This document shows positions 533-64,000 of a DNA stretch of 64,000 nt, piece after piece; within the stretch, counting starts at the first letter, position 1; every line of letters starts with the position of its first letter. The notes under the pieces are model-generated. The model searched no databases. It was not told where the DNA came from and was given only the letters and a program-made list of their open reading frames with translations. The translations under genes and the position numbers were made by a program. The DNA lies in assembly GCF_963921235.1 (NCBI RefSeq), contig NC_086108.1:59646001-59710000 (forward strand), in the 5' to 3' direction. The stretch is from Mobula hypostoma. Its lineage: Eukaryota.

Positions 533-1130
533 TTTACTTTATTGTCACCAAACAATTGATACTTGGGCATACAATCATCACAGCGATATTTGATTCTGCG
601 CTTTGCGTTCCCTGGAGTACAAATCAATAGTAAATATTAAAAATTTAAATTATAAATCATCATTAGAAAATAGAAAAGGGAAAGTAAGGTAGTGCAAAAA
701 AGCAGGTCCGGATATTTGGAGGATACGGCCAGATCCGGGTCAGGATCCATTCAGCAGTCTAATCACAGTTGGAAAGAAGCTGTTCCCAAATCTGGCCATA
801 TGAGTCTTCAAGCGCCTGAGCCCTCTCCCGAAGGGAAGAGGGATGAAAAGTGTGTTGGCTGGGTGGGTCGTGTCCTTGATTATCCTGGCAGCATTGCTCC
901 AACAGCGTGCGGTGTAAAGTGAGTCCAAGGACGGAAGATTGGTTTGTGAGTTGTGCTGGGCTGTATTCACGGTCTTCTGCAGCTTCTTCTGGTCTTGGAC
1001 AGGACAAATTCCATACCAGGTTGTGGGGCACCCTAGAAGAATGTTTTCTACGGTGCATCTATAAAAATTAGTAAGGGTTTTAGGGGACAGGCCAAATTTC
1101 TTTAGCTTTCTCAGGAAGTAAAGGCGCTGG
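533..1130 (-). mobile_element. 5'-truncated Rex1/Babar-type LINE 3' fragment inserted in Gypsy gag
   Basis: ORF 740-1231 QRLYFLRKLKKFGLSPKTLTNFYRCTVENILLGC...SFFPTVIRLLN is typical Rex1 C-terminus; AATAAA near 3' end; Gypsy sequence rejoins across it. Confidence 0.85.
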
Positions 1131-1381
1131 ACCAGACCAATACAGGTTTCGTGGTGAAACTTGCAGAAAATGCAACAAAGTAGGACACATACAAAAAGCA
1201 TGTCAGGCAGACAAAAGTAAATGTACTGCACCTGGAAGAAAAAAAGCTAAAAAGTCAAGTTGCAGTTTCAAAAAGAGCACTAATCTGCATGCTATTGATG
1301 AAAGATCAAATAATGATGACATATAGACAGGACTGGGTAGCCTTGAGATTTATAATATGAAAAGTAACAATAGATAAGCAA

Positions 1382-1486
1382 CATACATCAAAGTTGCTGG
1401 TGAACGCAGCAGGCCAAGCAGCATCTATAGGAAGAGGTGCAGTCGACGTTTCAGGCCGAGACCCTTCGTCAGGACTAACTGAAGGA
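1382..1486 (-). mobile_element. Short PLE pLTR insertion with 10-bp target-site duplication
   Basis: agataagcaa at 1372-1381 and 1487-1496; body near-identical to 15957-16079. Confidence 0.85.
1441..1476 (-). ncRNA. Minimal type-I hammerhead ribozyme motif (PLE-type)
   Basis: Minus strand reads AGTC-CTGACGA-AGG gtctcgg CCT-GAAAC-GTC-GACT: stem I AGTC/GACT, CUGANGA core, stem II AGG/CCT, GAAA, palindromic ACGT in place of helix III, GUC cleavage triplet. Confidence 0.8.
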
Positions 1487-2820
1487 AGATAAGCAATTTG
1501 GCTTTCACAAGAAGTGAATGGTAAATTAATGAAAATGGAATTTGACACTGGCTCAGTTGTTTCAGTTCATTTCACAAAATGAGTTGAATTGGCATTTCAA
1601 AGGTACTGAACTGAAAATATCCAGCTGAGGATTTTTAGTGGAGAAAAGATAACTCCTGTGAGAATGACTTTTGTAACAGTGAAATACAGCAGCCAACAAG
1701 CCACATTGGGCTTGTATGTGATAAAAAAAACATTAGGGGGGGCATGATTCGCTGAGACAGCTACAACTCAATTGGAGATCTATCCACTATTTGCATTCCA
1801 CGTACCCTGCAAAAGAGCCAACTGCAAGGGAATTAAGAAAGGTACTGGATGATGTGACAGGAGTATTCAGGGATGGCACTGGAAAACTCAAACATATAAA
1901 GGGTAAAACAGTGTTAAATGGAAATACCACACTCAGGTTTTACAAAGCCTGTTGGGTTCCCTATACCATCCGTGATAAAGAAGCCAGTGAAGCTGAGGAT
2001 CACATGGAAGCTGAAGGCGTTCTATCCATGGTTGAGTGGAGCCCATAGGCATCACCAGTGTTTCCAGTAGCCAAGAAGAATGAATCTGTGAGGATCTATG
2101 GTGATTTTAACGTCACCATCAACCCAGTACTGAAAGTAGACCAATAACCCCAGCTTAGGGTAGAGGATATCTTTGAAAACATTTCTGGAAGGAATCGTTT
2201 CACCAAAGTGGGCTTAGCTGAGGCCTACTTGCAGATGGAGATGGAAGAAGAGTCCAAAGTATTTCACACAAATGGCTTTATTGCTATAATAGACTTATTT
2301 ATGCACCAATACTCTGGCCGAAAGCTGTGGACCAGGGGCTGCAAGGCAGTCCAGGCACTCAGTGCTACCTGGATAACATTATTGTAACCGGGAAGGATCA
2401 CAAGGAACATCTCTGAAATCTCAAGTTTGTTAAATATATTATAATAATATAGGCTCGGGGCACAACATAAGAAGTGTGAATTCTTTAAACCAATCACCAT
2501 CAACATACAAGGATTACACAAGTGTGCTCAGAAAATTCAAGCCGTCACAGATGCCCCAAGGCCAAAATTTGTAGCCATTTTTGGGATTTTTCTGTTTCTA
2601 TAACAGGTTCCTGCCAAACATGGTTACTGTGCTCTCCCTTGAACTCATTACTGCATATTGGATATTGGAAGAAATGGCAATGGACAAAGCAATGTGAGGT
2701 GACTTTCAAAAAGGTAAAGGAAATGGTGACGCCACTGTACACACACATTATGATTCTCATTGTCGAAGCTTGCCAATGATGCCTCTCTTTAAGGTATAGG
2801 TGCAGTCATGTCACACGTTA

Positions 2821-5800
2821 AACATAGAACATAGAAAAACGACAACACTATACAGGCCTTTCGGCCCACAATGCTGTGCTGAACATGTACTGACTTCAGA
2901 AATTACCTAGGGTTACCCATTGCCTCTGTTTTTCTGAGTTCCATATACGTACCTGTCCAGGAGTCTCTTAAAAGACCCTATCTTATCATCCACCTCCACC
3001 AACATCGCTGGCAGCCCATTCCACGCACTCACCACTCTCTGCGTAAAAAACTTACCCCTGACATCTCCTTTGTACCCACTTCCAAGCACTTTAAAATTGT
3101 GCCCTCTCATGTTAGCCATCTCAGCCCTGGAAAAAAGCCTCTGACTCTCCACATGATCAATGCTTCTCATCATCTTATACACTCTGTTAGGTCACCTTTC
3201 ATCCTCTGTTGCTCAAAAGGCCAAGTTCATTCAACCTATTTTCATAAGGCATGCTCCCCAATCCAGGCAACATCCTCGTAAATCTCTTCTGAACACTTTC
3301 TACAGTTTCCACATCCTTCCTGTAGTGAGGTGACCAGAAATGAGCACAGTACTCCAAGTGGGGTCTGACCAGGGTCCTATATAGCTGTAAAATTACATTT
3401 CAGCTCTTGAACTCAATTCCACAGTTGATGAAAGCCAATGCACCTTATGCCTTTTTAACCACACAATTAACCTGCGCAGCAGCTTTGGGCATCCTCTGGA
3501 CTCAGACCCCAAGATCCCTCTGATCCTCCACACTGCCAAGTGTCTTACCATTAATACTATATCCTGCCATCATATTTGACCTACTAAAATGAACCACCTC
3601 ACACCTATCTGGGTTGAACTCCATCTGCCACTTCTCAGCCCTGTTTTGCATCCTATCAATGTCCCGCTGTAACCTCTGACAGCCCTCCACACTATCCTTA
3701 ACACCTCCAACCTTTGTGTCATCACCAAACTTACTAACTCATCCCTCCACTTTCTCATCCAGGTCATTTATAAAAATCACAAAGAGAAGGGGTCCCAGAA
3801 CAGATCCCTGAGGCACACCATTGGTCACCAACCTTCGTGCAGAATTTGACCCGTCTACAACCACTCCTCGCCTTCTGTGGACAAGCCAATTCTGGATCCA
3901 CAAAGTAAGGTCCCCTTGGATCCTATGCCTCCTTACTTTCTCAATAAGCCTTGCATAGGGTACCTTATCAAATGCCTTGCTGAAATCCATATACACTATA
4001 TCTACTGCTCTACCTTCATCTATCTGTTTAGTCACATCCTCAGAAAATTCAATCAGGCTCATAAGGCATGACTTGCCTTTGACAAAGCCATGCTGACTAT
4101 TCCTAATCAGACTATTCCTAATCAAACTATTCCTCTCCAAGTGTTTATAAATCCTGCCTCTCAGGATCTTCTCCATCAACTTACCAAACACTGAAGGAAG
4201 GCTCACTGGTCTATAATTTCCTGGGCTATCTCTATTCCCTTTCTTGAATAAAGGAACAACATCTGCAACCCTCCAATCCTCTGGAACCTTTCCCATCCCC
4301 ATTGATCATTTAAAGATCATTGCCAGAGGCTCAGCAATCTCCTCCCTCGCCTCTCACAGTAGCCTGGGGTACATCTCGTCCGGTTCCGGAGACTTATCCA
4401 ACTTGATGCTTTCCAAAAGCTCCAGCACATCCTCTTTCTTAATGTCTATAGGATCAAGCTTTTCCATCCGCTGTAAGTCATTCCTACAATCGCAAAGATC
4501 CTTTTCCGTAGTGAATACTGAAGCAAAGTATTCATTAAGTACCTCTGCCATCTCCTCCAGTTCCATACACACTTTTCCACTGTCACACTTGATTAGTACT
4601 ATTCTCTCATGTCTTGTCCTCTTGCTCATCATATACTTGTAGAATGCCTTGGGGTTTTCTTTAATCCTGCTCACCAAGGCCTTCTCATGGCCCCTTCTGG
4701 CTCTCCTAATTTCATTCCTAAGCTCCTTCCTGCTAGCCTTATAATCTTCTAGATCTCTGTCATTACCTAGTTTTTTGAACCTTCAAGCTTTTCTTTTCTC
4801 CTTGACTAGATTTTCAACAGCCTTTGTACACCACGGTTCCTGTACCCTACCATCCTTTCCCTGTCTCATTGGAATGTACCTTGCAGAGACCTGACACCTG
4901 ACCAGGTTCATTTCGCAATACCAGATCAAGTACAGCATCTCCTCTTGCAGGCTTTTACGCATATTGTGTCACGAAACCTTCCTGAACACACCTAACAAAC
5001 TCCACCCTATCTAAACCCCTTGGTCGAGAGAGACGCCAAACAATATATGGGAAATTATAATCTCCTACCATGACGACCCAGTTATTATTACACCTTTCCA
5101 GAATCTGTCTCCCTATCTGCTCTTCAATGTCCCTGTTACTATTGGGTGGTCTATAAAAAACACCCAGTAGAGTTATTGATCCCTTCCTGTTTCTAACTTC
5201 CACCCACAGAGTCTCAGTAGACAATCCCTCTATGACTTCCTCCTTTTCTGCAGCCGTGACACTATCTCTGATCAGCAGTGCCATGCCCCCACCTCTTTTG
5301 CCTCCTTCCCTGTCCTTTCTGAAACATCTAAAGCCTGGCACTCTAAGTAACCATTCCTGCCTCTGATCCATCCAAGTCTCTGTAATGGCCACCACATCAT
5401 AGCTCCAAGTACTGATCCAGGCTCAAAGCTCATCTGCTTTGTTCATGATACTCCTTGCATTAAAATAGACACATCTCAAACAATTGGTCTGAGTGTATCC
5501 CTTCTCTATCACCTGCCTATCCTCCCTCTCGCACTCTCTCCAAGCTTTCTGTATGTGTGAGCCAACTGCCCCTTTCTCCATCTCTTCAGTTCGGTTCCCA
5601 CCCCCAGCAATTCTAGTTTAAACTCTCCCCAATAGCCTTAGCAAACCTCCCTGCCAGGATATTGGTCCCCCTGGGATTCAAGTGCAACCCGCCCTTTTTG
5701 TACAGTCACACCTGCCCCAAAAGAGACCCAATGATCCAGAAATCTGAAGCCCTGCCCCCTGCTCCAATCCCTCAGCTACACATTTATCTTCCAACCCACT

Positions 5801-9768: not shown

Positions 9769-9830
9769 AATTGTATATTTTCAGTGTTTTACCTACAAAT
9801 CTCCTTAAACTTCATCCTAAGCTTTTTCAC

Positions 9831-11630
9831 CATAAGACATAGGAGCATAATTAGGTCATTCCACCCACCAAATCTGCTCCATCATTCTATCATGGATGAT
9901 TTCTTATCCCTCTCAACCCCATTCTCCCCCCTTCTCCCTGTAACCTTTGACACCCTGATAAATCGAGAACCTATGAACCTCCATCTTAAATACACCCAAT
10001 AACTTGGCCTGCACAGACACCTGGAGCAATGAATTCCACAGATTCACCACCCTCTGGCTAAAGAAATTTTTTCTCATCTTTCTAAATGGCCATTCTTCAA
10101 TTTCAAGGCTAAGCTCACTGCTCTTTGACTCCTACACTATAGAAAATATACTCTCTAAATCCACTCAATCAAGGCCTTCGATAGGTTTCAATGCGATGCC
10201 CCTCATTCTTCTAAACTCTAACAAGTACAGGCCCAGAACAATCAAATGCTCTTTTTATACATTAACTCTTTCATTCCTGGGATCATCCTCAGATATCCCG
10301 TCTGCCACTTTGTTGCCTATTCCCCAAAATCTGTATAGGTCCTTCTATAGACACTCTGCTTCCTCAACAATACCTGCCTCTCCAATTATCTTTGTATTAT
10401 CTGCAAACCTGGCCACAAAACCATCAATTCCTTCATCCAAATCATTAACATATAATGTGACAATAAGTGGTTCTAATACTGAGCCTTATGGCACACCAAT
10501 AGTCACCAACAGCCAACCAGAAAAAGCCCCCTTTATTCCCACTCGTTGCCTCCTGTGATTCACCAAAATTCTGCCTATGCTAGTACCTTTCCTGTGATAC
10601 AATAGGCTTCTATCTTAGCAACACATATCAAAGTTGCTGGTGAACGCAACTTTGGTCATGTTTAGGCTTTTACCTTGTTAAGCAGCCTCATGTGTGGCAC
10701 CTTGTCAAAGGCCTTCTGAAAGTCCAAGAAAGCAACAGCCACTGATTCTCTTTTGTCCATCCTGCCTATTATTTCCTCAGAGAATTCCAACAGATTTATC
10801 AGACCAGATTTGCCCTTTAGAAAACTATGCTGACTTTGGCCTGTTTTATCAAGTATCATAATAGACTCCAACATCTTTTCAACCACTGAAGTCAGGCTAC
10901 CAGGCCTATAATTTCCTTTCTTCTGCCTCCCTTCCTTGTTAAAGAATGGAGTGATATTTGCAATTTTCCGGTCCTCAGGAACTATACCAGAATGTACTGA
11001 TTCTCAAAAGACCATTATTAATGCCTCCACAAAATCTTCAGCTGCCTCTTTCAGAACTCCGGGGTGACATCTGTCTAGTCCGGGTGATCTATCTACCTTC
11101 AGACTTTTCAGATTTCCAAGCCCTTCTCCTCAGTAATAACAATGACATTCACCTCTGTCCCCTGACACTCCTGCATTTCTGGCATACCACTAGTGTCTTC
11201 CAGAGTGAAGACTGATGCAAAACACTTATTCAGTTCATCTGCCATTTCTTCGTCCCCCATTACTACCTCTACAGTGCCATTTTCCGGTGATCCAACATCA
11301 TCTAATCTTTTCTCTTTGTTACTCCTTATGTATCTGACAAAACATTGTATTCCTCTTTTCTATTATTGGCTTACTTTCGTATTTTAACTTTTCTCTCTTT
11401 ATGGCTTTTTTAATTACCTTCTGTTGTGTTTTAGAAGTTTTCCTATCCCCTACATTTCCATTATTTTTTTACTATATTAAATGCCTTCTCTTTAGCTTTT
11501 ATGCTCTCTTTAACTTCGCCAGCCATGGTTGCCTCATCCTCCCTATAGAATACTTTGTCTTTAGGATGTATCTTTCCTGCTCCTTCTGAATTTCCCCCAG
11601 AAACACCAGCCATCGCTGTTCTGCCATCAT
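9831..11630 (-). mobile_element. CR1 LINE ORF2 fragments plus 3' UTR
   Basis: QHSFLKGKS...FLDFQKAFDKVPH (10662-10886); cataagacataggagca tail; internal deletions. Confidence 0.88.
10617..10662 (-). mobile_element. 46-bp fold-back PLE pLTR micro-insertion
   Basis: agcaacacatatcaaagttgctggtgaac then inverted gcaactttgg; flanked by taggcttctatctt (10603-10616) and taggcttttacctt (10663-10676). Confidence 0.7.
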
Positions 11631-15900: not shown

Positions 15901-15956
15901 AAATTAGTTCTTGTGAAATCAAAAGGGATCTAATAAAATACTACTTATTTTAACTT

Positions 15957-16079
15957 CAAGCAACACACATCAAAGTTGCTGGTGAACGCAGCAGGCCAGG
16001 CAGCATCTCTAGGAAGAGGTACAGTCGACGTTTCAGGCCGAGACCCCTCGTCAGGACTAACTGAAGGAAGAGTTGGTAA
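15957..16079 (-). mobile_element. Short PLE pLTR insertion with perfect 14-bp TSD
   Basis: acttattttaactt at 15943-15956 and 16080-16093. Confidence 0.9.
16023..16058 (-). ncRNA. Minimal type-I hammerhead ribozyme motif
   Basis: Minus strand AGTC-CTGACGA-GGG gtctcgg CCT-GAAAC-GTC-GACT; one substitution versus the 1441 copy (G-U at base of stem II). Confidence 0.78.
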
Positions 16080-22729: not shown

Positions 22730-24333
22730 CAGGTTCCCCCGTCATCCGAAGGTAGAGCGTTCCTATGAAACGGTTTGTAAGCCGAAATGCCGTAAAGCGA
22801 AGAAGCAATTACCATTTATTTATATAGGAAAATTTTGTGAGCGTTCGCAGACCCAAAAATAACCTACCAAGTCATGCCAAATAACACATAAAACCTAAAA
22901 TAACAATAACATATAGTAAAAGCAGGAATGATATGATAAATACACAGCCTATATAAAGTAGAAATACTTCTCTACAATGATTGCCTGCACAGATCTCTGT
23001 AGCGAAAATCTCACACAAGCGCTCTCAGCAGAAAATCTTACGCAAGCGTTGTTGGCATAAACGCGCTCTCCAGTAACCTTTAAACTATGAAGCTGCCAAA
23101 TCTACCAAATAACACGTAAAAATACACAGCCGATATAAAGTAGAAATAATGTATGTACAGTGTAGTACCACTTACCGGAATTGGGAAAACAGCGCCGAGC
23201 ACACTGATGATGGTGTGTTAGACTGAGTCGTTGAAGGCTGGGTGGTGCAGTGGCCCCCACCCTCCGGGCCGCCAGCCCGATACATTGCCACGAAGAATGC
23301 AGCAGTAGTCGGGAGGCACCCAGCACATCTTTAAGAAAAAAGCCGAAATAAATATGCTAACTAATTAGGTGCTGTCTGGCACGTAAGTGTCCGCGCAGAT
23401 CAGAGGCGATTGCCGATTGTATCGCCTCCGCTCTGGGCCGACAATTACGTGCTAGGCGGCACCTAATTAATTAGCATGTTTATTTCAGCTTTTTTCTTAA
23501 AGATGTGCTGTGTGCCTTCCGGCTCCCGCTGTGTTCTTCGTGAATCGGTACAGTATCTGTCCGGGGCCCAGGAGTTGGGGTGGTGGGACACGGGAGTGTC
23601 ATCTCATCGTCGATCAGGGCAGGCAGCTCATCTTCTCCTATGACTGCCCGCCTCGATGTCGAAGGTCGAGGTTCGTCGTCTGCTGTGGCTGATGTGGAAG
23701 GCTTGCTTGACTGCTGAGCCTTGCGCATTTTTCTATCATACAGTTATTTGTAAGCACTCAAACCAACCTGCAGATATCCCCTAAACCTATGTACCCTTTC
23801 AAGATTAAAGTCGTACTTTATCATTGCAGCGAAAATCTCACGCAGTTGCTTCACTTTCTGCATTCGGTTGCATTCAGTTTCGATTGTTATCCTTTCCTCT
23901 TCCAATTGCATCAGCTCTTCATCTATCAGTTCTTGGTCATGGGATGCCAAAACCTCTTCAATATCATTTTCGTCAACTTCCACAAGCCAAACTCACTTTA
24001 TCCTTGCTTCGTTCACCACGATCAAAATGCTTAATTATGTCTAGTTTTACGCTAAGTGTAACACCCTTACTCTTTCAGGCTTTTCCGACACCTTAGAACT
24101 CATCTTGCTAACGGCGGCTCAATGCAATGTGTTAAAGCAATGTCATTCCGAATCCGGGGGAGAGCGGCTGCTTGGGGCGCGCTCTGCCTTTTATCGCGCA
24201 CTGATTTTTTCGCGCGCTGCCTTTCTTTTTAACAGTGAAAACACCTTCTGAAAGCGAAAACAGGGTACTAATGTAGGTCTTTTATAACAGTGAGGTTTCG
24301 TAAAGCGGACGTTTGAAAAGAGGGGGACACCTG
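22730..24333 (-). mobile_element. Internally deleted Tigger/pogo DNA transposon
   Basis: TIRs caggttccccc / gggggacacctg; TA at 22728-22729 and CA (mutated TA) at 24334-24335; N-terminal VTLSVKLDIIKHFDRGE joined to C-terminal EVDENDIEEVLASHDQELIDEEL; catalytic domain absent. Confidence 0.88.
23289..23542. repeat. 254-bp imperfect palindrome inside Tigger
   Basis: cacgaagaa...gaggcgat [loop 23411-23420] atcgcctc...ttcttcgtg. Confidence 0.9.
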
Positions 24334-27300: not shown

Positions 27301-27379
27301 AACAAACAAACTGCTGGAAAAACTCAACAGGTCTGGCAGCATCACTAGGGAAAAATAGATGACTGATGAAGGATCTAGA

Positions 27380-28271
27380 GCTTTCCCGGCATAAATGATG
27401 TATAAACTCTTCTCAGCTTCCAGCCGGGTACACTCATCGATTCTAACCAATATTTCAATGATAAATTCTGCCACCTTCATCAAGAGTGATAGCCGAGCAT
27501 GCCTAGTCTGGTGGTATTTATACTCCTATATTTCGTCCCTCCTGATAGGTTAGTCCTCATCCAATCAGGTGTCCATTCTTCCACCCTGCCTACAATCGAA
27601 TTCCAGTTCTTACCTAGAGCAAGACCTTTATCTTTGTTAAAATTCTTTTCCTCTAGTTTTCTTTCAACGGCTTCCTTTACCAGGTAGTCTCAAAAGCTAT
27701 CGGCATGGCACAGTAATTTTGTGCCATCAAATTCAATCCTATGGCCACTGTGAATGCAATGTTCTGCTTCCACCAATTTCTCCAGGTAATCCTAGTGGAT
27801 GCATCTCTTGTCCTTCTTCATGCAGGTTTCCACAGTGCATCCCATCTGGCTGATATATGCTACTCCGTATTTACAGGGAATCCTGTAAACACCATCCGTC
27901 CAGAATCCCAGGTCAGGTTTGACCTGCATAACCTGCAATTTGAGCTTCCTTACAGGTTTGTGGATGGTATTAATCTGGTATTTCTTCAGGATCCTGGCAA
28001 TCATTTCAGAAACCATGGAAATATAGGGAAGACAGGCAGTAGCGATGGGTTCCTCCTCGTTATTAGTTTTCCTGGTTATTCCATCGGCCCTTTTAAGGGC
28101 CCAATTGATTTCCTTCCTTCACCTTGTAGCCATTCTGTAGGAACATTGTGCGTAATTGCCGTATTTCCTCAGGGAGAGTCTCTGGGTCAGAAATATTTTT
28201 TGCATTATTAATCAAAGTCTCCGCTGGGAGACATGATGGTGGATGTTATTGTTGACATATAAATCCATGTT
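27380..28271 (-). mobile_element. Penelope-like element family 2, inverted arm (RT C-term, GIY-YIG, pLTR)
   Basis: IARILKKYQINTIHKP...GVYRIPCKYGVAYISQMG (27792-28016). Confidence 0.85.
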
Positions 28272-29370
28272 CATCACCCTTATACCCCAATTGTTTCTTC
28301 AAATAGGTCGATGACACCTTTGTAGTGTGGCCACGTGGACTCCAGGCACTCCAACAGTTCCATGATTGTATGAGTGGTATAGGTCCGAACATTCAATTTA
28401 CAATGGCGATGGAGAAGAATGATTGTCTCCTGTTTCTGGACATTCTAGTAAGACGGAAACTGGATGGTGGCCTCGGACATGGTATCTATTGGAAACCCAC
28501 TCACACGGACTTGTACCTCAACAACAACAGCCACCGTCAAGCCTCCCAATGTAGGGTTGTTCTTTCTACTTTGATTAACTGTGCAAAAGCTATTTTGGAG
28601 CTGGGGAGTCGCCCTCAGGAAATAAGACCATTATGCATGATGCTCCTACAGAATGGCTACAAGGTGAGGGAAATCATCTGGGCCCTTAAAATGGCCAAAG
28701 GAAAAATCAGGAAACCTAACAATGAGGAGGAACCTGTCACTACTACCTGTCTTCTCTATATTTCCATGATTCCTGGAAGGATCGCCAAGATCCTGAATAA
28801 ATACTGGATTAATACCATCCACAAACCCATAAGGAAACTCAAGTCACAGTTTATGTGGGTCAAAGATGACCTGTGACTCAGGTCAGCTGGGGTTTACAGG
28901 ATTCCCTGTGAATGCAGAACAGTGTATGGGACGCACAGTGAAAACTCACATCGAGGAGCACAAAAGGTATACCCATTTGGGTTACCCAGAGAAATCGGAC
29001 ATAGCAGAACACTACATTCACAATGGTCATAGGACTGACTTCAACGGCACAAAACTACTTTGCCACGCCAATGGCTTTTGGGGCTGCCTGGTAAAGGAAG
29101 CCATTAAGATAAAACTACAGGAGAAGAATTTTAACCAAGATGAAGATCTCACTCTAAGTAAGAACTGCAATTTGATTGTAAGCAAGGTGGGAGCATGGAA
29201 ATCTGATTGGATGAGGACTAACCAATCAGGAGGGATGGACTATGGGAGTATAAATACCACCAGACTAGACATGACCACGTATCATCCCTGATGAAGATGG
29301 CAGAGTTTGTCATTGAAATGGTGGTTATAATCGATACCTGGTCCTGCTGGAAGCCCGAGAAGAGTTTACT
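28272..29370 (+). mobile_element. Penelope-like element family 2, forward arm
   Basis: VDDTFVVWP (~28308); IQFTMAMEKN..LLFLDILV...YWKPTHTDLYL; GIY-YIG C-term KSDIAEH...KEAIKI; pLTR with CTGATGA(29288-29294)-hairpin-GAAA(29315-29318). Confidence 0.88.
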
Positions 29371-29563
29371 GGATAGCTGATGTTTCAGATTGAGACCCTT
29401 CATCCGGACAAATTCCTTTTTCTTACTATTAGCTATATCCAGTCAAATATCCTTCTATATCAGTCCATATGAAGAGTCTCAATGTGAAACATATACTGTT
29501 TATTTTCCTCCACAGATGCTGCCTGACCCAATGAGTTCTGACACCATTTTGTTTGTTGCTCCA
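29371..29563. mobile_element. Remainder of an older small inverted-pLTR element (left part ~27278-27370) hosting the family-2 PLE
   Basis: gatgtttcagattgagacccttcatccggac (minus degenerate hammerhead) and cagtccatatgaagagtctcaatgtgaaacatatactg...cagatgctgcctgacc (plus). Confidence 0.55.
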
Positions 29564-33837: not shown

Positions 33838-36800
33838 TAGAAACATAGAAAACCTACAGCACAATACAGGCCCTTTGGCCCACAAAGTTGTGCCAAACAT
33901 GTCCCTACCTTAGAAATTACTAGACTTCCTATAGCCCTCTATTTTTCTAAGCTCCATGTACCTATCTAAAAGTCTTTTAAAAGACCCTATCGTATCCGCC
34001 TCCACCACCGTTGCCGGCAGCCCATTCCACGCACTCACCACTCTCTGCGATAAAACTTACCCCTGACATCTCCTATGTACCTACTTCCAAGCAGCTTAAA
34101 CCTGTGTCCTCTCATGATAGCCATTTCAGCCCTGGGAAGAAAACCTCTGACTATCCACACGATCAATGCCTCTCATCATCTTACACACATCTATCAAGTC
34201 ACCTCTCATCCTCTGTTGCTCCAAGGAGAAAAGGCCAAGTTCACTTAACCTATTCTCGTAAGGCATGATTCACTATCCAGGCAACATCCTTGTAAATCTC
34301 CTCTGCACCCTTTCTATAGTTTCCACATCCTTCCTGTAGTGAGGTGACAAGAACTGAGCACAGCACTCTAAGTGGTGTCTGACCAGGGTTCTATATAACT
34401 ATAACATTATCTCTCAGCTCTTAAATTCAATCCCACGGTTGATGAAGGCCAATGCACAGTAGGCCTTCTTAACCACAGAATCAACCTGTACAGCAGCTTT
34501 GAGTGTCCTATGGACTCCAAGATCTCTCTGATCCTCCACACTACCAAGGGTCTTACCATTAATGCTATATTCTGCCATCATATTTGACCTACCAAAATGA
34601 ACCACCTCACACTTATCTGGGTTGACTCCATCTGCCACTTCTCAGTCCAGTTTTGCATTCTATCATTGTCCCGCAGTAAGCTCTGACAGCCCTCCACACT
34701 ACCCACAACACTTCCAATCTATGTGTCATCAGCAAACTTACTAACCATCCCTCCACTTCCTTATCCAGGTCATTTATAAAAATCACGAAGAGTAAGGGTC
34801 CCAGAAGAGATCCCTGAGGCACTCCACTGGTCACCGACCTCCATGCAGAATATGACCCGTCTACAACCAATCTTTGCCTTCTGTGGGCAAGCCAGTTCTG
34901 GATCCACAAAGTAATGTCCCTTTTGATCCCATGCCTCCTTACTTTCTCAATAAGCCTTGCATGGGGTACCTTATTAAATACCTTGCTGAAATCCATATAC
35001 ACTATATGTACTGCTCTTCCTTTATCAATGAAGTCACATCCTCAAAAAATTCAATCAGGCTCGTAAGGCATGACCTGCCCTTGACAAAGCTGTGCTGACT
35101 ATCCCTAATCATATTATACCTCTCCAAATGTTCTTAAATCCTGCCCTTCAGGATCTTCTCCATCAACTTACCAACCACTGAAGTAAGACTCACTGGTCTA
35201 TAATTTTCTGGGTTATCTCTACTCCCTTTCTTGAATAAAGGAACAACATTCGCAACCCTCCAATATTCCAGAACCTCTGTCATCCCCATTGATGATTCAA
35301 AGATCATCGCTAGAGGCTCAGCACTCTCCTCCCTCGCCTCCCACAGTAGCCTAGGGTACATCTCATCCGGTCCCGGTGACTTATCCAACTTGATGCTTTC
35401 CAAAAGCTCCAGCATATCCTCTTTCTTAATATCTACATGCTCAAGCTTTTCAGCCCGCTGCAAGTCAGCACTACAATCACCAAGATCCTTTACCGTAGTG
35501 AATACTGAAGTAACGTATTCATTAAGTACCTCTGTTATTTCCTCCAGTTCCATACACACTTTCCCACCGTCACACTTGACAGGTCCTATTCTTTCACGTC
35601 TTATCCTCTTGCTCGTCACATACTCGTAGAATGCCTTGGGGTTTTCCTTAAGCCTGACCGCCAAGGCCTTCTCATGGCCCCTTCTGGCTCTCCTAATTTC
35701 CTTTTTAAGCTCCTTCCTGTTAGCTTTATAACCTTCTAGATCCCTAACATTACCTAACTCTCTGAACCTTTTGTAAGCTTTTCTTTTCTTCTTGACTAGA
35801 TTTATTACAGCCTTTGTACACCATGGTTCCTGTAGCCTACCATAACTTCCCTGTCTTGTTGGAACATACCTATGCAGAACTCCACACAAATATCCCCTGA
35901 ACATTTGCCACATTTCTTCCATACTTTTCCCTGAGAACTTCTGTTCCCAATTTAAGCTTCCAATTTCCTGCCTGATAGCCTCGTAATTCCCCTTACTCCA
36001 ATTAAATGCTTTTCTAACTTGTTTGTTCCTATCTCTCTCCAATGCTATTGTAAAGGAGATAGAATTATGATCACTATCTCCAAAATGCTCTCCCACTGTG
36101 AGATCTGACACCTGACCAGGTTCATTTCCCAATACCAGATCAAGTACGGTCTCTCCTCTTGTAGGCTTATCTACATATTGTATCAAGAAACCTTCCTGAA
36201 CACACCTAACAAACTCCACCTGTAGTGTTCTCGTGCAGTGTGTTGAAACTCTGACTAAACACCAAGTTAAACTGGAGCCAATGAAGACAGAGTCGTAGTT
36301 AGTTTAACCATTTACTGTTCACTCTTCCACATTAACATTGTATGGTGAAAACTGTTGATAAAAAAACACAAACATATACAGCGTCTGTTTCATTCTGGAG
36401 ACCACCCGCACTCTCTTTTAGCGAGTGTCTCCAGCCGCCCCGAGTAGGGAGCGAGGAGGTTGCATCAAACCGCCGCTGGGCCTGAGTCCACCCCGCGTTT
36501 GAAATTGAAAAGTCGACACGCGCGCCGCTTCCTTTAACAGAAACCGTGTTAATATTTTTACTTCAAATACTTTCATAGGAACTTACAGCATTGCTTCTAT
36601 AATGTTTCTTTGTGGGCAGAAACGGAGCTCTTCACGATCATGCTGCACGCATGGCACCCACCTTCACACCTTCCCGAACCGGAGGTTACACATAAGACGT
36701 GGCGAAACCGGAGGTGACATCATCACATGCTGTGATAGACCATATACAATTAATTTACCTTTGTTATACTGTAACTTAATTATCAACCTTTAACTTTAAC

Positions 36801-52330: not shown

Positions 52331-54520
52331 CAAAGTAAGTTTTAGTGTGTGAACCACTTTAAGATGCATTAAGGAAAAGAGTTAAAGATGTGGTGAGAAA
52401 TAACTGGGGGAGTTCCTACTTCTTTTCCCTGTATGAGGTCAAAAATTTACACTGTGTTGGGTGAGGTGCACTGGCACCCAGAAGAAAATAAGCAGACCTG
52501 GTGTTAATTTACATAAAAATATTACTATGATAGAAACTAACTATAGACCCATACTTAATGAACATGAAGGAGATGAAGGCATTAGAGACCTGAGCAGCAC
52601 CCAGACTGCTACAAGGCCTGTCCACATCTGCATTTTCCTTGTTTTTCTTGCAAGTAGAACTTCTGTCCATTTTTATATGGTCACCCATGTCCTTGGGACA
52701 ATGGGAGCTCTGGCTTCGGTCCCCAGTGTAAGACTGGAATTGCATCCTCCACATTAGCTGACCTTTTACCATGGTGTAATTAAAGTTAAAAAAGAACAAG
52801 ATTCAAGATTGCTTATTGACATTCTACAGTACGCAAGAGTAAAAGAGAATGAGATGGTTGTTACTCCAAATCTGATAAGCATAAAAAAAAACACAATAAG
52901 ACCATGAGACATAGGAGCAGAATTAGGCCATTTGGCACGTAGAGTCTTCTCCGCCATTCAATCATGGCTTGTCCTTTCTTTTTCTCCTCCTCAGCCCCAC
53001 GCCCCAGCCTTCACCCTGTAACCTTTGATGCCATGTCCAATCAGGAACCTGTTAAACTCTGCCTTAAATACACCCAATGACCTGGAATCCACAGCTGCCT
53101 GTGTTAATAGATTCCACAAGTTCACTACCCAGTGGCTGAAGAAATTTCTTTTAAACGGATGCCCTTCTATCCTGAGGCTGTGCCGTCTTATCCAAGACTC
53201 ACCCACCATGGGAAACATCCTTTCCACATCTACCATGCCTAGGCCTTTCAATATTTGAAAGGTTTCAACGTGATCCCCTCTCATCCTTCTAAATTCCAGT
53301 GAGTACAAACCCAGAGCTATCAAATGTTTCTCCTATGATAACCCTTTCCCTCCTGCAATCATCCTTGTGTACCTCCTCTGAACCCCCTCCAATGCCAGCA
53401 CATCTTTTCGTAGATGAAGAGCTCCAAACTGTTCACAATACTCAAGGTGAGGCCTCACCAGTGCCTTATAAGTGCTCAGCATCACATCACTGCTATTGTA
53501 TTCTAGACCTCTTGAAATGAATGATAACATTGTATTTGCCTTCCTCACCACCAACTTCAGGTTGTCCTGCAAAAGGACTCCCAAGTCCCTTTGCATGTCA
53601 GATTTTTTGGATTTTCTCTCCACTTAGAAAATGGTCAGCACATTCATATCTTCTATCTCAATGCATGACAATGCATTTTCCAACATTGTATTTCATTTGC
53701 CACTTTCTTGCCCATTCTCCTAATCTGTCTAAGTCCTTCTGCATCCTACCTGTTTCCTCAACACTACCTGCCCCTCCACCAAACTTTATATCATCTGCAA
53801 ACTTGACAATGAACGATCTATTTCATCATCTAAATCACTTATATACAGAATAAAAAGAAGTGGCCCCAACACCAGCCCCTGTGGAACACCATAAGTCACT
53901 GGCAGCCAACCAGACAAGGATCCTTATATCCCCACTCGCGGTCTCCTATCAATCAGACAATGCTCTAGCCATGCTAGTAACTTTCCTGAAATACCACGGG
54001 CTCTTAACTTGGTAAACACCTGATGTGTGGCACCTTGTCAAACGCCTTCTGAAAGTCCAAATTTACAATCTTCACTGTATTCCCTTTATCTCCCCTACTT
54101 GTAATCTCCTCAAAGAATTCCAGCAGTTTTTACAGGCAAGATTTTCCCTTAAGGAAACCATGCACACTTTTTCCTATCTTGTCCTGCATCACCAAGTATT
54201 CCATAACCTCATCCTTAACAATTGATTCCAACATCCCCCCAACTACAGAAGTTAGGCTAACTGGTTTATAATTTCCTTTCTGCTCTCTTCCTCCTTTCTT
54301 AAAGATGTGGAGTGACATTTGCAGTTTTCCAGTCCTCTAGCACCATGCCCGAGTCCAATGATTTTTGAAAGACCATTACTAATGCTTCCATAATCTCCCC
54401 CGCTACCTCTTTCAGAACCCTAGGTTGCAGTTCATCTGGCCCGGGTGACTAATGTACATTTGGGTCTTTCAACTTTTTGAGCACCTTCTCCCTTGTAATA
54501 GTAACCACACTCACTACTCT

Positions 54521-54964
54521 CAGGGGTGCAGTGGTAGCTGGAGCACTCTGAAACACATTCGGCACCTCTTTTAAGGAAAAAGCTGAACTAACCAAGCTAA
54601 TTAATTAGGTGCCGCCCAGGGTGATTTGAGTCTCTCAGAAACTGCTGATCTGGGATTTTTACGTACAACATACTCTGGAGTTTACAAAGAATGGTGCCAA
54701 AAACAAAAAAAAAATCCAGCGAATGGATTTAACGAGATGTTTTTGCTCACGGAACAGCCACTCGCTGGATTTTTTTTTGTTTTTGGCACCATTCTTTGTA
54801 AGCTCCAGAGTAGGTTGTGCATAAAAATCCCAGGAGATCAGCAGTTTCTGAGATACTCAAATCACTCTGGGCAGCACCTAATTAATCAGCTTGTTTATTT
54901 CAGCTTTTTTCTTAAAGAGGTGCCGAACGCGGTTCAGAGTGCTTCGGCTACCACTACACCCCTG
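54521..54964. mobile_element. 444-bp fully palindromic hAT MITE with mirrored Tc1-transposase core
   Basis: CAGGGGTG...CACCCCTG termini; perfect 8-bp TSD actactct (54513-54520, 54965-54972); arms ~205 bp; spacer ~54727-54757. Confidence 0.9.
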
Positions 54965-55072
54965 ACTACTCTTCTCTCGCACCTTTCAACATCTGGCACA
55001 CTGCTCTTGTCTTCCACAGTAAATTATGATGCAAAATATTCATTTAGTTCATCTACCATCTCCTTGTCCCCT

Positions 55073-55243
55073 CGAGGAAATCTGCAGATGCTGGAAATTC
55101 AAGCAACACACACAAAAATTGCTGGTGAACGTAGCAGGCCAGGCAGTATCTATTGGAAGAGGTACAGTCGACGTTTCGGGCCGAGATGTCTTCCAATAGA
55201 TGCTGCCTGGCCTGCTACATTCACCAGCATTTTTTGTATGTGT
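55073..55243. mobile_element. Fold-back PLE pLTR insertion with half hammerhead
   Basis: Perfect 12-bp TSD tccttgtcccct (55061-55072, 55244-55255); ~55-bp inverted arms; agtcgacgtttcgggccgaga at 55166-55186. Confidence 0.88.
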
Positions 55244-58904: not shown

Positions 58905-61530
58905 GTGTAAATACATCTATTGATGCTTCTGGACACATCTTCAGTGATGTTCCTGGAATCATTGGGTGTTTCGGGTCTTTCAACATCATACAACCTCCTC
59001 CAGGTGACCCAGCCGGGGCTGATCAGACCCCAGCTTGTGTCCAGTTGGCTAGCTACTTATGACTCCATGGCTCCCCTCTTTTGAGCCACAGCCATCTTAA
59101 GGCCCTCTCTGCCGCATCAGTGGTACTGCGGATGGCTCTCCTCTTCCTCTCTCCTTCGATGCCCAAAATGCTGAAGGCTCATACTAAAGAACGGACTATG
59201 AATTCCCTACAATCAACCTCCACGGGGAGACACCTCGCTCTCCATCCAGCCTGCTGACAGTTGCTGACCAGTCCTGCGTACTTGGAGAGTTTCCTTTCAA
59301 AGGCCTCTTCCAAGCTATCTTCCCATGGGACTGTCAGCTCCAGCAGCACCACTTGCTTAGTAGACTCAGATACTAGGACAATGTCTGGTCGCAGGGTGGT
59401 GGCTGCGATATGGTTGGGGAACTTCAGCTGCCCTTCGAGGTCCACCAACAGCTGCCAGTCCCTTGCAGAGGTCAGAATGCCTGCAGATGTTCTTTTGGCA
59501 GGTATTGGCTGCTCCCCAGCTCTGACAAAGGCAATGGTCTGCTTGGAGGGTTGGGACCGCTTCGCCCACTCAACTCCTGCGCTGACGGCTTCAGCGATGG
59601 TCTTCAGGACCTGATCATGCCTCCACCTGTACCGTCCCTCACCAAGTGCCCTTGCACAGCCACTGAGGATGTGCTCCAGGGTTCCTCGCTTGGAGCACAG
59701 TGGGCACGCAGATGACTCTGCCTTGCCCCATGTGTGCAGGTTTGATGGGCTTGGAAGCACATTGTACATTGCCTGGATGAGAAATTGGATGCAGTGTGAT
59801 TCGGCTTTCCAAAGATCAGCCCAGGTCACTTTCCTTTCAACCGCATTCTCTCATCTTGTCCAAGCTCCCTGTTGCTTCATTCCCACGGCCTTGCAGGCTC
59901 TCATCTCCTCCACTACTGCTCTCACCTCCTCCTGAACTAGACGACACCTTTCCTTCCCTCTGGTGTCCATTTGAGGAGTTGGAAATGATCCTAGCCCAGC
60001 TCGGCCTCATGTGACCACTCCCACCAGCCTCCTGTGACGCAGCCTCGCCTCTGCCTCCTGAACAGCTTCCTCTGCCCTCCACTTCCTGCCAGTACTTACT
60101 TGGATCCCTGCTCTAGCCACCTTCGGGTCACTTGAGTCCCTATACTGTAGCACTCCTCTGGCTGTTGTTACCTTGAATTCTTCCTCCAAGGATTTGAAGG
60201 ACAGTTGCAGTTTGTTGTGGTGTCCATAGAGTGCGATGCTGCTCAGGCTCTTTGGCAGCCCCAGCCATCTCCTGAGGTGGTTGCTAACCCTCCTCTCTAA
60301 GGTTTCGACTGTCGGGATCAGAACTGCATAGGCGAGAAGGGGCCACAGGATTCTGGGAAGAATGCCATGCTGATACATCCAGGCTTTAAACTTCTCAGGG
60401 AGGCCAGACTTGTCCACAGATTTCAGCCAGTCATCCAACTTGGTGCAGGTTGCCTAAATGGATGTTGTGTCCCTTAAAGAACTGTCAAAAACTTTGCCTA
60501 AGCTCTTGACTGGCTTTTCTGTGATGGTTGGGATGGCTGTACCTGCGATGCTGAACCAGAACTTGTTCTCCACCTTCCCTTTCCTCAGCACCATCGATCT
60601 TGATTTGGCAGGTTTGAAACGCATCCGGGTCCACTCCACCAGCTTTTCGAGCCCTTGCAGAATCCTCCGGCAGCCTGGGACTGATTCTGTGGTGATTGTG
60701 AGGTCATCCATGAATGCCCTGATAGGTGGTTGCCGTTGAGCGGAATTCATTCTGGGCCCTCTGGACTCTGGTTCAGCAGACTTAGTGAGCATGTTCATGG
60801 CTAGGGAGAACAGTGTCACTGAGATAGTGCACCCTGTGATGATGCCGACCTCCACCTTGTGCCAGGTTGATGTAATCGCTCCTGAAGAGACCCTCATCCT
60901 GAAGTTGCTGTAATAATCAGCGATAAAGTCTCTGATTCTGCTGGGGACGTGATATTTGGTCAGTGTGAGCTGCATCAGCTTGTGCAGAATGGAGCCATAT
61001 GCATTTGCCAGGTCGAGCCACAACACTGACAGGTTGCCCTTGTTCTCTCTGGCCTCCCTGATGAGCTGTGTCACCACACTGATGTGCTCCAGACAGCCCG
61101 GCATCCCTGAAATGCCACCCTTCTGGTCTGATGTATCAATATAGGTGTTCTTTGCTAGGTGCACATCCGGTTAGAAACTGCACTGAAGAAGATCTTCGCC
61201 TCGACACACAGCAGGGAGATGATGTGAAACTGATCTATCTGGGTGGCATTTTCCTCCTTCGGGATCCGCACCCCTTCAGCCACTCTCCACTGTTCTGGGA
61301 TTTTCCCCCTTCTCCAGAAGGTTCTCAGGATCTTCCACAGATACAGCAGGAGTTTGGGGCAGTTCTTGTACACTTTGTACGAGGTATTGCTTGGTCCTGG
61401 AGCCAAGCTTGCCCTTGCTTTGCGGATCTAAGATTCCTAATTTTTCATCCTGAGCTTTTTCTTCATAAAATAGCTCCACCACTGAGGTTCAGGTGACCTC
61501 AGTTCTGGACTACAATTGATGCACGTTGAA
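58905..61530 (-). mobile_element. 5'-truncated Hero-like (R2-group) non-LTR retrotransposon: RT + CCHC + restriction-like endonuclease
   Basis: APGP...YKVYKNCP; GCLEH; WLDLANAYGSI; GIITGCTIS; RAFMDDL; CPLCSKRGTLEHILSGC; WRHDQVL; RPDIVL...LLELTVPWE...ERKLSKY; ORF ends WLWLKRGEPWSHK* near 59053; several frameshifts. Confidence 0.88.
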
Positions 61531-61537
61531 CAGTTTC

Positions 61538-64000
61538 CATAAGACTACAATATATAGGACCAGAATTAGGCCATTTGGCCCATTGAGCCTGCTCCACTAT
61601 TTTATAATGGCTGAGCCAATTTTCCTCATAGTCCCAGCCTCCTGCCTTCTCCCCACATCCTTTCATGCCCTGGCCAATCAAGAATCGATCAACCTCTGCC
61701 TTAAATATACATACAGACTTGGCCTCCACAGCTGCTTGTGGCAAAGAATTCCACAGATTCACCACTCTCTGACTAAAGAAATTCCTCCTCATCTCTGTTC
61801 TAAGAGGATACCCCTCTATTCTGAGACTGTGTCCTCTGATCTTAGACTCTCCCACAATAGGAAACATGCTCTCCACATCCACTCTATCAAGGCCTTTCTC
61901 CATTCAATAGATTTCAATGAGGTTACCCCTCATTCTTCTGAATTCTGGTGAATACAGGCCCAAAGCCATCAAACACTCCTCATATGACAAGACATTCAAT
62001 CCTGGAATCATTTTTGTGAACCTCAGTTGAACCCTCACTAGTTTCAGCACACTCTTCCTAAAATAAGGGGTCCAAAACTGCTCACAATACTTTAAGTGAG
62101 GCCTCACCAGTGCTTAATAAAATCTCAACATTACATCCTTGCTTTTATATTCTTTTTTTTTATAGAGGCATCCGTTAGTCTCGTGAGACCATGGATTTGT
62201 GCCTTGGAAGGTTTCCAGGGCGCAGATCTGGGCAAGGTTGTATGGAAGACCGGCAGCTGCCCATGCTGCAAGTCTCCCCTCTCCATGACACCAATGTTGT
62301 CCAAGGGAAGGGCATTAGTACTCATACAGCTTGGCACCGGTGTCGTTGCAGAGCAATGTGTGGTTAAGTGCCTTGCTCAAGGACACAACGTGCTGCCTCA
62401 GCCAGGGCTCGAACTAGCGACCTTCAGATCACTAGACGAATGCCTTAACCACTTGGGCACGCGCCAACACTTTTATATTCTCATCCTCTTGAAATGAATG
62501 CTAACATTACATTTGCCTTCCTCACCACAGACTCAAGCTGCAAATTAACTTTTAGGGAATCCTGTACAAGTACTCTCAAGTCCCTTTGCACCTCAGGATT
62601 TAGTATTTTCACTCCATTTAGAAAATAGTTAACCTTTTCATTTCTTCTACCAAAGTGCAAGACCGTACATTTCCCTACACTGTACTCCATTTGCCACTTC
62701 TTTGCTCATTCTCCTTATCTGTTTAAGTCCTTCCGTAGCCTCACTACTTCCTTAAAACTACCTGCCCCTCCACCTAACTTCATATCATCTACAAACTTTG
62801 CAACAAAGCCTTCAATGTCATTATGAAATCATTGACATATAACATAAGAAGAATCGGTCCCAACAAAGACCCTTGTGGAATACTGCTAGTCACCGGCAGC
62901 CAACCAGAAGCGGCTTACTTTATTCCCAATCTTTGCCTCCTGCCAATCAGCCACTGTTACATCCATGCTAAAATCTTTCCTGTAATACCGTGCATGCATA
63001 GCTTGTTAAGCAGTTTCATGTGTGACACCTCATCAAAGGCCTTCTGAAAATCCAAGTACACAACAACAACAACATTGCCCTTTTGGCATGCATTTTCTCT
63101 CTCCGTTGTAATTTGTGGGTCACACCCTTACTACTGTTTGGGGTTCTGTATACAACTCCCATCAGGGTCTTTTACCCTCGCAGTGCCTTAGTTTTAACCT
63201 CAACACCTTCTGATCCTATGTCTCCTCTTTCTAATGATTTGATTTCATTTTTTACCAACAGAGCAATGCCGCCCCCTCTGCCTTCCTGCCTGACCTTTCG
63301 ATACCATGTGTATCCTAGGATATTAAACTCCTTGCTATATTCTTCTTTCAGCCATGATTCAGTGATGCCTACAATATCATATGTTACATGTCACTCTGCT
63401 AATGTGCTGCAAGTTCATTGACTTTATTTTTTATACTGCACGCATTCAAATATAACACCTTTAGTCCTGTATTCATCCTTTTCTATTTTGTCTGCCTTTT
63501 ACGTTTAAACTCATCCTGTTGACTGCAACTTTGCCCTATCAATAGCCTCTTCTCACTACACATTTCCTCTGTTTGTAACCCAGCTACCTCATCTTCAGCA
63601 CTACGATGCTAGCATTGAAATATACACAGCTCAGAACACTAGTTGCATCATGCTCAGCCGTTTGATTCCGAGCTTTGTCTGAGGTCTTACCAACATCTGC
63701 CCCCAAAACCTCTCCACTATCTGTTCTGGCACTCTGGTTCCCATCCCCTTGCAACTCCAGTTTAAACACCACTGTGCAGCATTAACAAATCCTCACGCTG
63801 GAATATTAGTTCCCCTCCAGTTCCGGTGAAAACTGTCCCTACTGTACCTGTCCCACCTTCCCTGGAAGAGAGCCCAATGATCCAAAAGCCTTATGCTCTC
63901 CCTCCTACACCAACTCCTTAGCCACATATTAAACTGTATAATCTTCCTAGTTCTGGCCTCACTAGCACTTAGCATGGGTAGCAATGCTGAGATCACAACC
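61538..64000 (-). mobile_element. CR1 LINE (ORF1 esterase, EN remnant, RT C-term, 3' UTR), runs off window
   Basis: RPHLKYCEQFW, RGHSLRI...FFSQRVV; DIVGITESWL; ORF1 FNMWLRSWC...LLDHW...GTNI (63793-63996); large internal deletion near 63085. Confidence 0.9.
62154..62469 (-). mobile_element. Full-length tRNA-derived SINE (CORE-like body, RTE-like tail)
   Basis: Minus head with A box TGCCCAAGTGG and B box GTTCGAGCC; tgtgtccttgagcaaggcacttaacc; poly-A end; perfect 12-bp TSD cttttatattct (62142-62153, 62470-62481). Confidence 0.88.

Follow-up and report, generated by a model that had tools for sequence, protein, structure and literature searches.

What kind of element left a small, hammerhead-bearing insert in the genome of the ray Mobula hypostoma, and how was it put there? 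An earlier note on a 64,000-nt stretch of this genome (contig NC_086108.1, positions 59,646,001 to 59,710,000; hereafter the window) had described an insertion of about 105 bp, flanked by a 10-bp target-site duplication (TSD) and carrying a minimal hammerhead ribozyme, and had read it as a recently mobilized, non-autonomous unit that was either retrozyme-like or an extreme truncation of a Penelope-like element (PLE).

We first delimit the insertion by its host, a decayed LTR-retroelement gag/protease region (zf-CCHC, E 3.3e-4; sister copies 85–87% alike) that is likely of Ty3/Gypsy type; one sister copy, L205, also gives a weak gag-asp_proteas match (E 0.045). In 15 of 19 other copies of this host element the site is empty, with exactly 10 nt between the flanks, indicating that 115 nt were gained at this locus. 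The insert was seen at none of the 19 sister-copy junctions, and the four remaining copies have flank spacings of 3, −2, −11 and 440, corresponding to deletions or a misplaced right-flank match. The duplication AGATAAGCAA, at 1372–1381 and 1487–1496, is carried once, as the identical 10-mer, by one sister host copy. Because nine of its ten letters also match the element (six at the element 3′ end, three at the 5′ end), the element part is 105–114 nt long and the true TSD 1–10 nt. The insertion and its 10-nt duplication thus stand as described, with the added length revised to 115 nt and the TSD left ambiguous; the insert is also free of coding sequence, as had been claimed, except that its final codons correspond to what is probably the beginning of the parent open reading frame (ORF). 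A second nested insertion in the same LTR relic (740–1246, minus strand) contains a reading frame matching ALKBH8_N (E 4.5e-9), a pattern known from LINE-derived sequence. The features of the locus and two further copies of the family in the window are collected in Table 1.

Table 1. Features of the hammerhead-bearing insertion, its host and related copies, in window coordinates.
Feature	Position	Strand	Remark
Host: decayed LTR-retroelement gag/protease region, broken by the insertion	1084..1600	+	zf-CCHC; sister copies
Left 10-nt duplication AGATAAGCAA	1372..1381	+	1376–1381 also matches the element's short 3′ end
Element-matching part, −45..+68 of the predicted cut; 3′-terminal PLE pseudo-LTR (pLTR) piece ending at the short (tail-less) 3′ end	1376..1489	-	1/114 differences vs ORF-joined pLTR of L376
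Helix I 3′ strand GACU	1441..1444	-	
GAAA box, loop-less palindromic helix III (ACGU) and GUC cleavage triplet	1445..1452	-	Predicted cut between 1445 and 1444
Unpaired A (1465) and stem II, 4 bp G-U/G-C/G-C/U-G, loop CUCG	1453..1465	-	
Catalytic box CUGACGA	1466..1472	-	
Helix I 5′ strand AGUC, −32..−29	1473..1476	-	Where 5′ ends of sister copies pile up
Right 10-nt duplication	1487..1496	+	1487–1489 also matches the element
Second solo copy, same PLE family, 96% alike	15955..16073	-	Own 14-nt duplication
Inverted (head-to-head) pair, same PLE family	55075..55241	.	One long-tailed and one short arm; core incomplete

Positions in the element are numbered from the predicted cut, with 0 the first base after GUC (window 1444) and the RNA sense on the minus strand. 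On that strand the insert reads AGTC (1476–1473), CTGACGA (1472–1466), A (1465), GGGTCTCGGCCT (1464–1453), GAAA (1452–1449), CG TC (1448–1445) and GACT (1444–1441), so that the CUGANGA/GAAA/UH core, helices I and II and a palindromic helix III are all present, as in PLE-type minimal type-I hammerheads. A minimal-hammerhead descriptor matched 20 times in 664 kb of unselected genome versus 0–1 per shuffle (10 shuffles), and exact matches to the 34-nt core number 45,316 in the genome versus 0 for a reversed-pattern control, which argues that the motif is not due to chance. An Rfam search of the window and of a 200-nt region gave no hammerhead match. The letters, the descriptor scan and the core count together bear out the PLE-type minus-strand hammerhead with its ACGU helix III and its predicted cut between 1445 and 1444.

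The pairing originally proposed for stem II, A-U/G-C/G-C, is replaced by a better-fitting register, an unpaired A followed by a 4-bp stem whose first pair is G10.1-U11.1. Of 130 copies, 30 have C at position 11.1, a change that keeps G10.1-C11.1 and breaks the A-U pair, and we therefore prefer the unpaired-A register, which is also 1.4 kcal/mol more stable by predicted folding; the A-U pair is broken in 5 of 12 aligned cores. Across these 12 descriptor-picked cores, helix changes are one-sided only, with no two-sided compensatory change, and a search for compensatory helix I families gave 444 matches, the 100 listed of which mostly look like point-mutated copies of the main family. Lunse et al. 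(2017) reportedly found cleavage as a dimer. Here the active fold is predicted to lie 4–6 kcal/mol above the ensemble (z 0.05), which would be consistent with a need for a dimer or a protein, as the texts of PMC4209133 and PMC11167929 describe for other PLE hammerheads. Two further observations concern related families. An older one repeatedly carries CUGCCGA in place of CUGACGA (A6C; for example C50_59546001:89766, C1_2737700:7277 and C1_2437500:1059), a possible natural core variant. In the families seen, a pyrimidine tract ending in CAG/TAG precedes the hammerhead (−60..−31; window 1475–1489), with the AG within helix I, and to judge by its letters it looks like a splice acceptor; an intron of Drosophila virilis Penelope is described as ending at helix I (PMC4209133).

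The hammerhead belongs to a longer coding element. The parent unit spans 3,522 nt with one ORF encoding a DKG motif, a reverse transcriptase (RT) with YIDD, a CX4CxxC linker finger and a GIY-YIG domain with two internal cysteines. A 679-aa open frame at L032:1918–3957 matches RVT_1 (E 2.5e-5) and GIY-YIG (E 6e-4), both with Pfam scores below the gathering cut-offs, and the atlas neighbours of the parent protein are RVT_1/GIY-YIG/HTH_animal at 0.98. Read by eye, the linker is CKRNKCYTC and CSRC lies between the GIY-like and YIG motifs, and the CX2-5CxxC linker finger and CCHH motif of the Neptune clade are both found; Nematis is described as likewise having a linker finger (PMC8557442). By sequence, the parent is a canonical EN+ PLE with Neptune-type motifs, the clade label coming from motifs and not from a tree. 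The closest named relatives of its protein are from Mobula hypostoma itself (87–94%), Hypanus sabinus (78–81%) and sharks (67–70%). Two ray gene models named for unrelated proteins, P0007 and P0031, contain large pieces of the PLE ORF and are probably annotation artefacts or cases of exonization.

Several observations tie the window insert to this parent. The hammerhead is found ~330 nt downstream of the ORF stop; in tandem copies the sequence continues from it across the tail and into the following ORF; and among 80 near-full-length copies, 15 extend back across an upstream hammerhead as pLTR-forming partial tandems. Copies extend upstream for variable lengths, continuous into the RT/GIY-YIG ORF, and genomic matches in the 3.48-Gb genome number 106,257 for the 31-mer adjacent downstream, the 45,316 given above for the core and 605 for a 34-mer near the ORF start. 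Short and long copies also have haplotypes in common (TAGC in 21/60 versus 18/44; CGTT in 17/60 versus 7/44), and the window copy differs at a single one of 114 letters from an ORF-joined pLTR. We hold it to be very probable that the insert is the 5′-truncated 3′ end of an autonomous PLE, likely made by the element's own RT and GIY-YIG endonuclease from uncleaved RNA, with a hammerhead predicted to depend on a dimer or on protein. The truncation branch of the earlier proposal is supported by the continuity into the ORF and by the match to an ORF-joined pLTR.

Its other branch, a non-LTR retrozyme, would be a non-autonomous tandem unit that self-cleaves to monomers, circularizes and is re-inserted by PLE machinery. 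The insert has the type-I hammerhead and the lack of an ORF that this predicts, and a PLE ancestry has been proposed for animal retrozymes in the text of a preprint (bioRxiv 10.64898/2026.07.22.740005); however, the window copy is single, no more than 3 of 132 cores lie within 1 kb of a neighbour on the same strand, and hammerhead units were not seen as short head-to-tail arrays. Copies form a continuum of lengths that reaches 2.7 kb, into the ORF, and they do not end at the cut site (15 of 20 inspected ends there are 3–4-nt microhomology junctions). The lack of tandem units and of cleavage-defined ends largely refutes the retrozyme reading and makes it highly improbable; the continuity with the ORF, the shared haplotypes and the scarcity of tandem neighbours likewise speak against the earlier suggestion of a retrozyme-like unit.

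To characterize the geometry of insertion in the PLE family, we mapped 141 young copies, 101 of them located in the first 3 Mb of C1 through the downstream 31-mer (covering 97 of the 100 listed sites of this 31-mer) and 40 taken at ≥86% identity from 664 kb of contiguous blocks. Their 3′ ends are bimodal, with 81 short ends at +50..+74, 58 long ends at +89..+113 and 2 run-through copies. The interval between these two fixed ends, ~35 nt apart at about +65 or +102, is the PLE tail, which is reported to lie between two internal RT start sites (PMC11167929). More than half of the copies (75 of 141) are arms of head-to-head inverted pairs, and for 71 of these 75 one arm of the pair has a long 3′ end and the other a short one. 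Duplications flanking the pairs reach at least 10 nt in 41 of 47 and measure 12–15 nt in 38 of 47, and solo copies have a duplication of at least 10 nt in 18 of 64 by a strict rule, versus 0 of 300 controls. Within pairs, arm lengths correlate (rho 0.58, p 2e-5; 47 pairs), and the arms of 41 overlapping pairs agree at 387 of 416 diagnostic sites versus 60% for random arms. The possibility that one arm was copied from the other by snap-back was rejected: in 27 of 47 pairs it is the short arm that extends farther in the 5′ direction, and the long arm has a tail missing from the short one. Inverted copies that are flanked by a TSD and tailed on one side have been reported (PMC3846280, PMC2377424), and the texts of PMC8557442 and PMC4209133 describe the PLE tail, inverted truncated copies and a hammerhead in the pLTR; the architecture of pair, tail and TSD is known already, and the junction counts come from the present analysis. 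Separately, two loci 1.4 Mb apart, L031 (C1:391500–401499) and L032 (C1:1823100–1833099), have the same inversion junction between a 2.76-kb arm and a 0.93-kb arm, with different flanks and swapped tails; the junction is absent from the other 28 of 30 loci, and the inverted structure may itself have been retrotransposed.

These data suggest a scheme in which the endonuclease would nick both target strands about 13–14 nt apart and cDNA synthesis would begin inside the RNA at one of two sites ~35 nt apart. If both nicks primed, an inverted pair with a long and a short arm would result; if one did, a solo copy like the window insert. For the window copy, synthesis would have begun at the short site, probably aided by 6 nt of target–RNA complementarity, and ended at about −45. 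Stubs, having no ORF-side sequence, would probably be dead on arrival.

Where synthesis ends is also non-random. On the 5′ side, termination per kb copied is 9–19 between −20 and −60 versus 1.3–2.7 outside the ribozyme region, with a larger excess among paired copies (21 per kb) than among solo ones (7 per kb), and 20 of the 141 mapped copies end at −28..−36. Genome-wide, 5′-end patterns that demand three mismatches just upstream of the tested position matched 2,992 times at −32 versus 89 times at −39; corrected by flank probabilities, a rough correction because many flanks are partner arms, these become about 7,400 and 320, a roughly 20-fold pile-up. With a wider pattern, 9,987 matches were found to end at −28..−35, and a hand tally of the 100 matches listed (the first 30 script-confirmed) placed 6 at −28, 15 at −29, 13 at −30, 18 at −31, 23 at −32, 13 at −33, 3 at −34 and 9 at −35, indicating a peak that spans the helix I 5′ strand and falls off sharply on its upstream side. 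Of thirty loci ending at −32, 29 were scored, 19 of them inverted and 10 solo; the partners vary, microhomology is absent from most, and one or more of the solos may belong to another family. The window copy, with its 5′ end at about −45, lies outside the pile-up class. Several −32 junctions (L261, L264, L270, L273 and L278) contain a short (A)CGA insert that matches element positions −25..−22, which suggests re-annealing at the AG of −21/−20 after the template end.

Mapping of copy ends relative to the cleavage site, as the earlier note had proposed, gave no comparable signal there. Matches numbered 235 at position 0 versus 87 at +3 and 239 at −4; 19 of 20 inspected position-0 ends are inverted junctions, and the excess at 0 vanishes once junction microhomology (3–4 nt in 15 of the 20) is removed, ruling against 5′ ends set by ribozyme cleavage. 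For the Poseidon element PAc, cleaved RNA is reported not to be the template and the hammerhead to be protein-assisted (PMC11167929), and the absence of cut-site ends is in line with uncleaved RNA as the template here as well.

The sharp boundary raises the possibility of a SINE-like family, in which stubs would be transcribed into RNAs of ~100–140 nt starting at the ribozyme edge and mobilized in trans as a lineage of their own. It would account for a 5′ boundary at −29..−33 in thousands of copies, and TTAGTC at −34..−29 is initiator-like. However, the haplotypes TAGC and CGTT occur in short and long copies alike, the window copy reaches past the boundary, and the stubs lack ORF-side sequence of the kind that the anole PLE is reported to require for priming (PMC11167929), making a separate SINE-like lineage very unlikely.

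As to what causes the pile-up within the autonomous PLE family, an RNA 5′ end has a little under an even chance; a block to the RT by the ribozyme, a ribonucleoprotein or a −44..−20 hairpin is a real possibility, itself somewhat short of even, and some other cause is unlikely. Near-full-length copies count against a simple transcription-start model, as 14 of 15 pass the helix I edge seamlessly; 5′ ends at −28..−36 were found in 1 of 15 full-length versus 20 of 112 3′-terminal copies (p 0.46; 80 of the 100 listed sites used). Cap copying was rejected, with G preceding −32 in 23 of the 100 matches listed (hand count) and no enrichment. A branch-point stop was set aside from the sequence under the rule relating a branch point to its acceptor AG, as the stretch from it to the acceptor-like site downstream contains additional AG dinucleotides. 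Four contig sets on L075 gave no interpretable splice joint or RNA end, and one set is probably DNA; these sets speak neither for nor against a reading. Tentatively, and with the balance of probability against it, we propose that the uncleaved hammerhead region fixes PLE insertion geometry: a protein dimer would prime both nicks from RNA of a single source, using two internal sites on it, and thousands of stubs would be run-off (strong-stop-like) cDNAs ending on the 5′ strand of helix I, where a major template RNA would begin at the initiator-like A at −32. If the run-off reading is true, long copies would need tandem read-through or circular templates, and ribozyme cleavage would matter there.

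In young copies the CpG sites of the core have decayed by 6–10%, about equally on both strands, and most other sites by 0–4%; CpG observed/expected is 0.70 versus 0.22 in the host flank. Because the core decays neutrally in young copies, CpG richness marks recent insertion: the recent mobilization claimed for this unit holds, and its CpG-rich core reflects youth. In older families, non-CpG core blocks are 72–91% conserved versus 54–55% in both flanks (68 of 90 copies, recruited by the downstream part and retained at ≥60% identity over −32..+3; this filter is biased towards the core, and the set still contains a few main-family copies); on sequence evidence this points to selection in master lineages. 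Random 5′ ends and a core no better conserved than its flanks had been named as the signature of ordinary truncated tails, and this signature is found by half: the ends are not random and pile up at the upstream edge, and the older-family core is better kept than its flanks.

Elsewhere in the window, related long inverted-repeat (MITE-like) elements at 23289–23542 and 54520–54965 give weak matches to microRNA families in Rfam, below gathering. An old inverted repeat of ~2 kb (27403–29368), with arms ~80% complementary and PLE-core remnants at its edges (27321–27349 and 29379–29412), is possibly an ancient inverted PLE pair. Decayed LINE-like reverse transcriptase copies lie at 3000–4400, 9800–11100, 34000–35400, 52900–54500 and 61500–63100 (direct-repeat families D1–D20).

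The window insertion is in itself ordinary genomic debris of a known class. The ray PLE family is useful for studying the integration mode of PLEs and the role of their hammerhead, and its more than 100,000 young copies let junction statistics be read at single-base resolution. Two priming sites, a 13–14-nt stagger, correlated arms, no cut-site enrichment and a ~20-fold edge pile-up together provide predictions for an in vitro PLE assay and for 5′-end RNA mapping. Our literature search did not find the ray family or the helix I boundary described; the supplements of PMC4209133 and of the 2026 preprint may list related families.

Compared with known systems, the ray family most resembles EN+ PLEs of the Neptune clade as the text of PMC8557442 describes them, with a single ORF of RT followed by GIY-YIG, DKG, a CX2-5CxxC finger and two cysteines within GIY-YIG, and with a hammerhead-bearing pLTR, partial tandems, an adjoining inverted 5′-truncated copy, a 30–40-nt tail at one end and a TSD; relative to that account, more than 100,000 stub matches and the sharp 5′-end pile-up at helix I are features of the ray family. 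Its hammerhead is like the minimal ones that Cervera and De la Pena (2014, PMC4209133) describe for metazoan PLEs in its loop-less palindromic helix III, the unpaired nucleotide between 9 and 10.1, G10.1-C/U11.1, a helix I of 4–5 bp and its occurrence mostly as single motifs from truncated PLEs, whereas stem II has 4 bp compared with 7–8 bp for Schistosoma; the main text of that paper names no elasmobranch family. Non-LTR retrozymes, described as tandem units yielding circular RNAs (PMC7229834; bioRxiv 10.64898/2026.07.22.740005), share with the ray copies a non-coding, PLE-derived sequence with a type-I hammerhead, but the ray copies have no tandem array or cleavage-defined unit, carry a minimal and not a canonical hammerhead, and are continuous with a coding parent. 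As in Poseidon PAc of Anolis (Frangieh et al. 2024, PMC11167929), two fixed 3′ ends match internal RT starts, and the dimer predicted there to cut both strands would explain pairs of a long and a short inverted arm. In contrast to PAc as described in that text, the first in-frame ATG of the ray ORF is placed not at stem II but 3′ of the hammerhead, within the tail or past it, and ray 3′ junctions show signs of short target–RNA complementarity, whereas priming by the anole element in vitro is homology-free.
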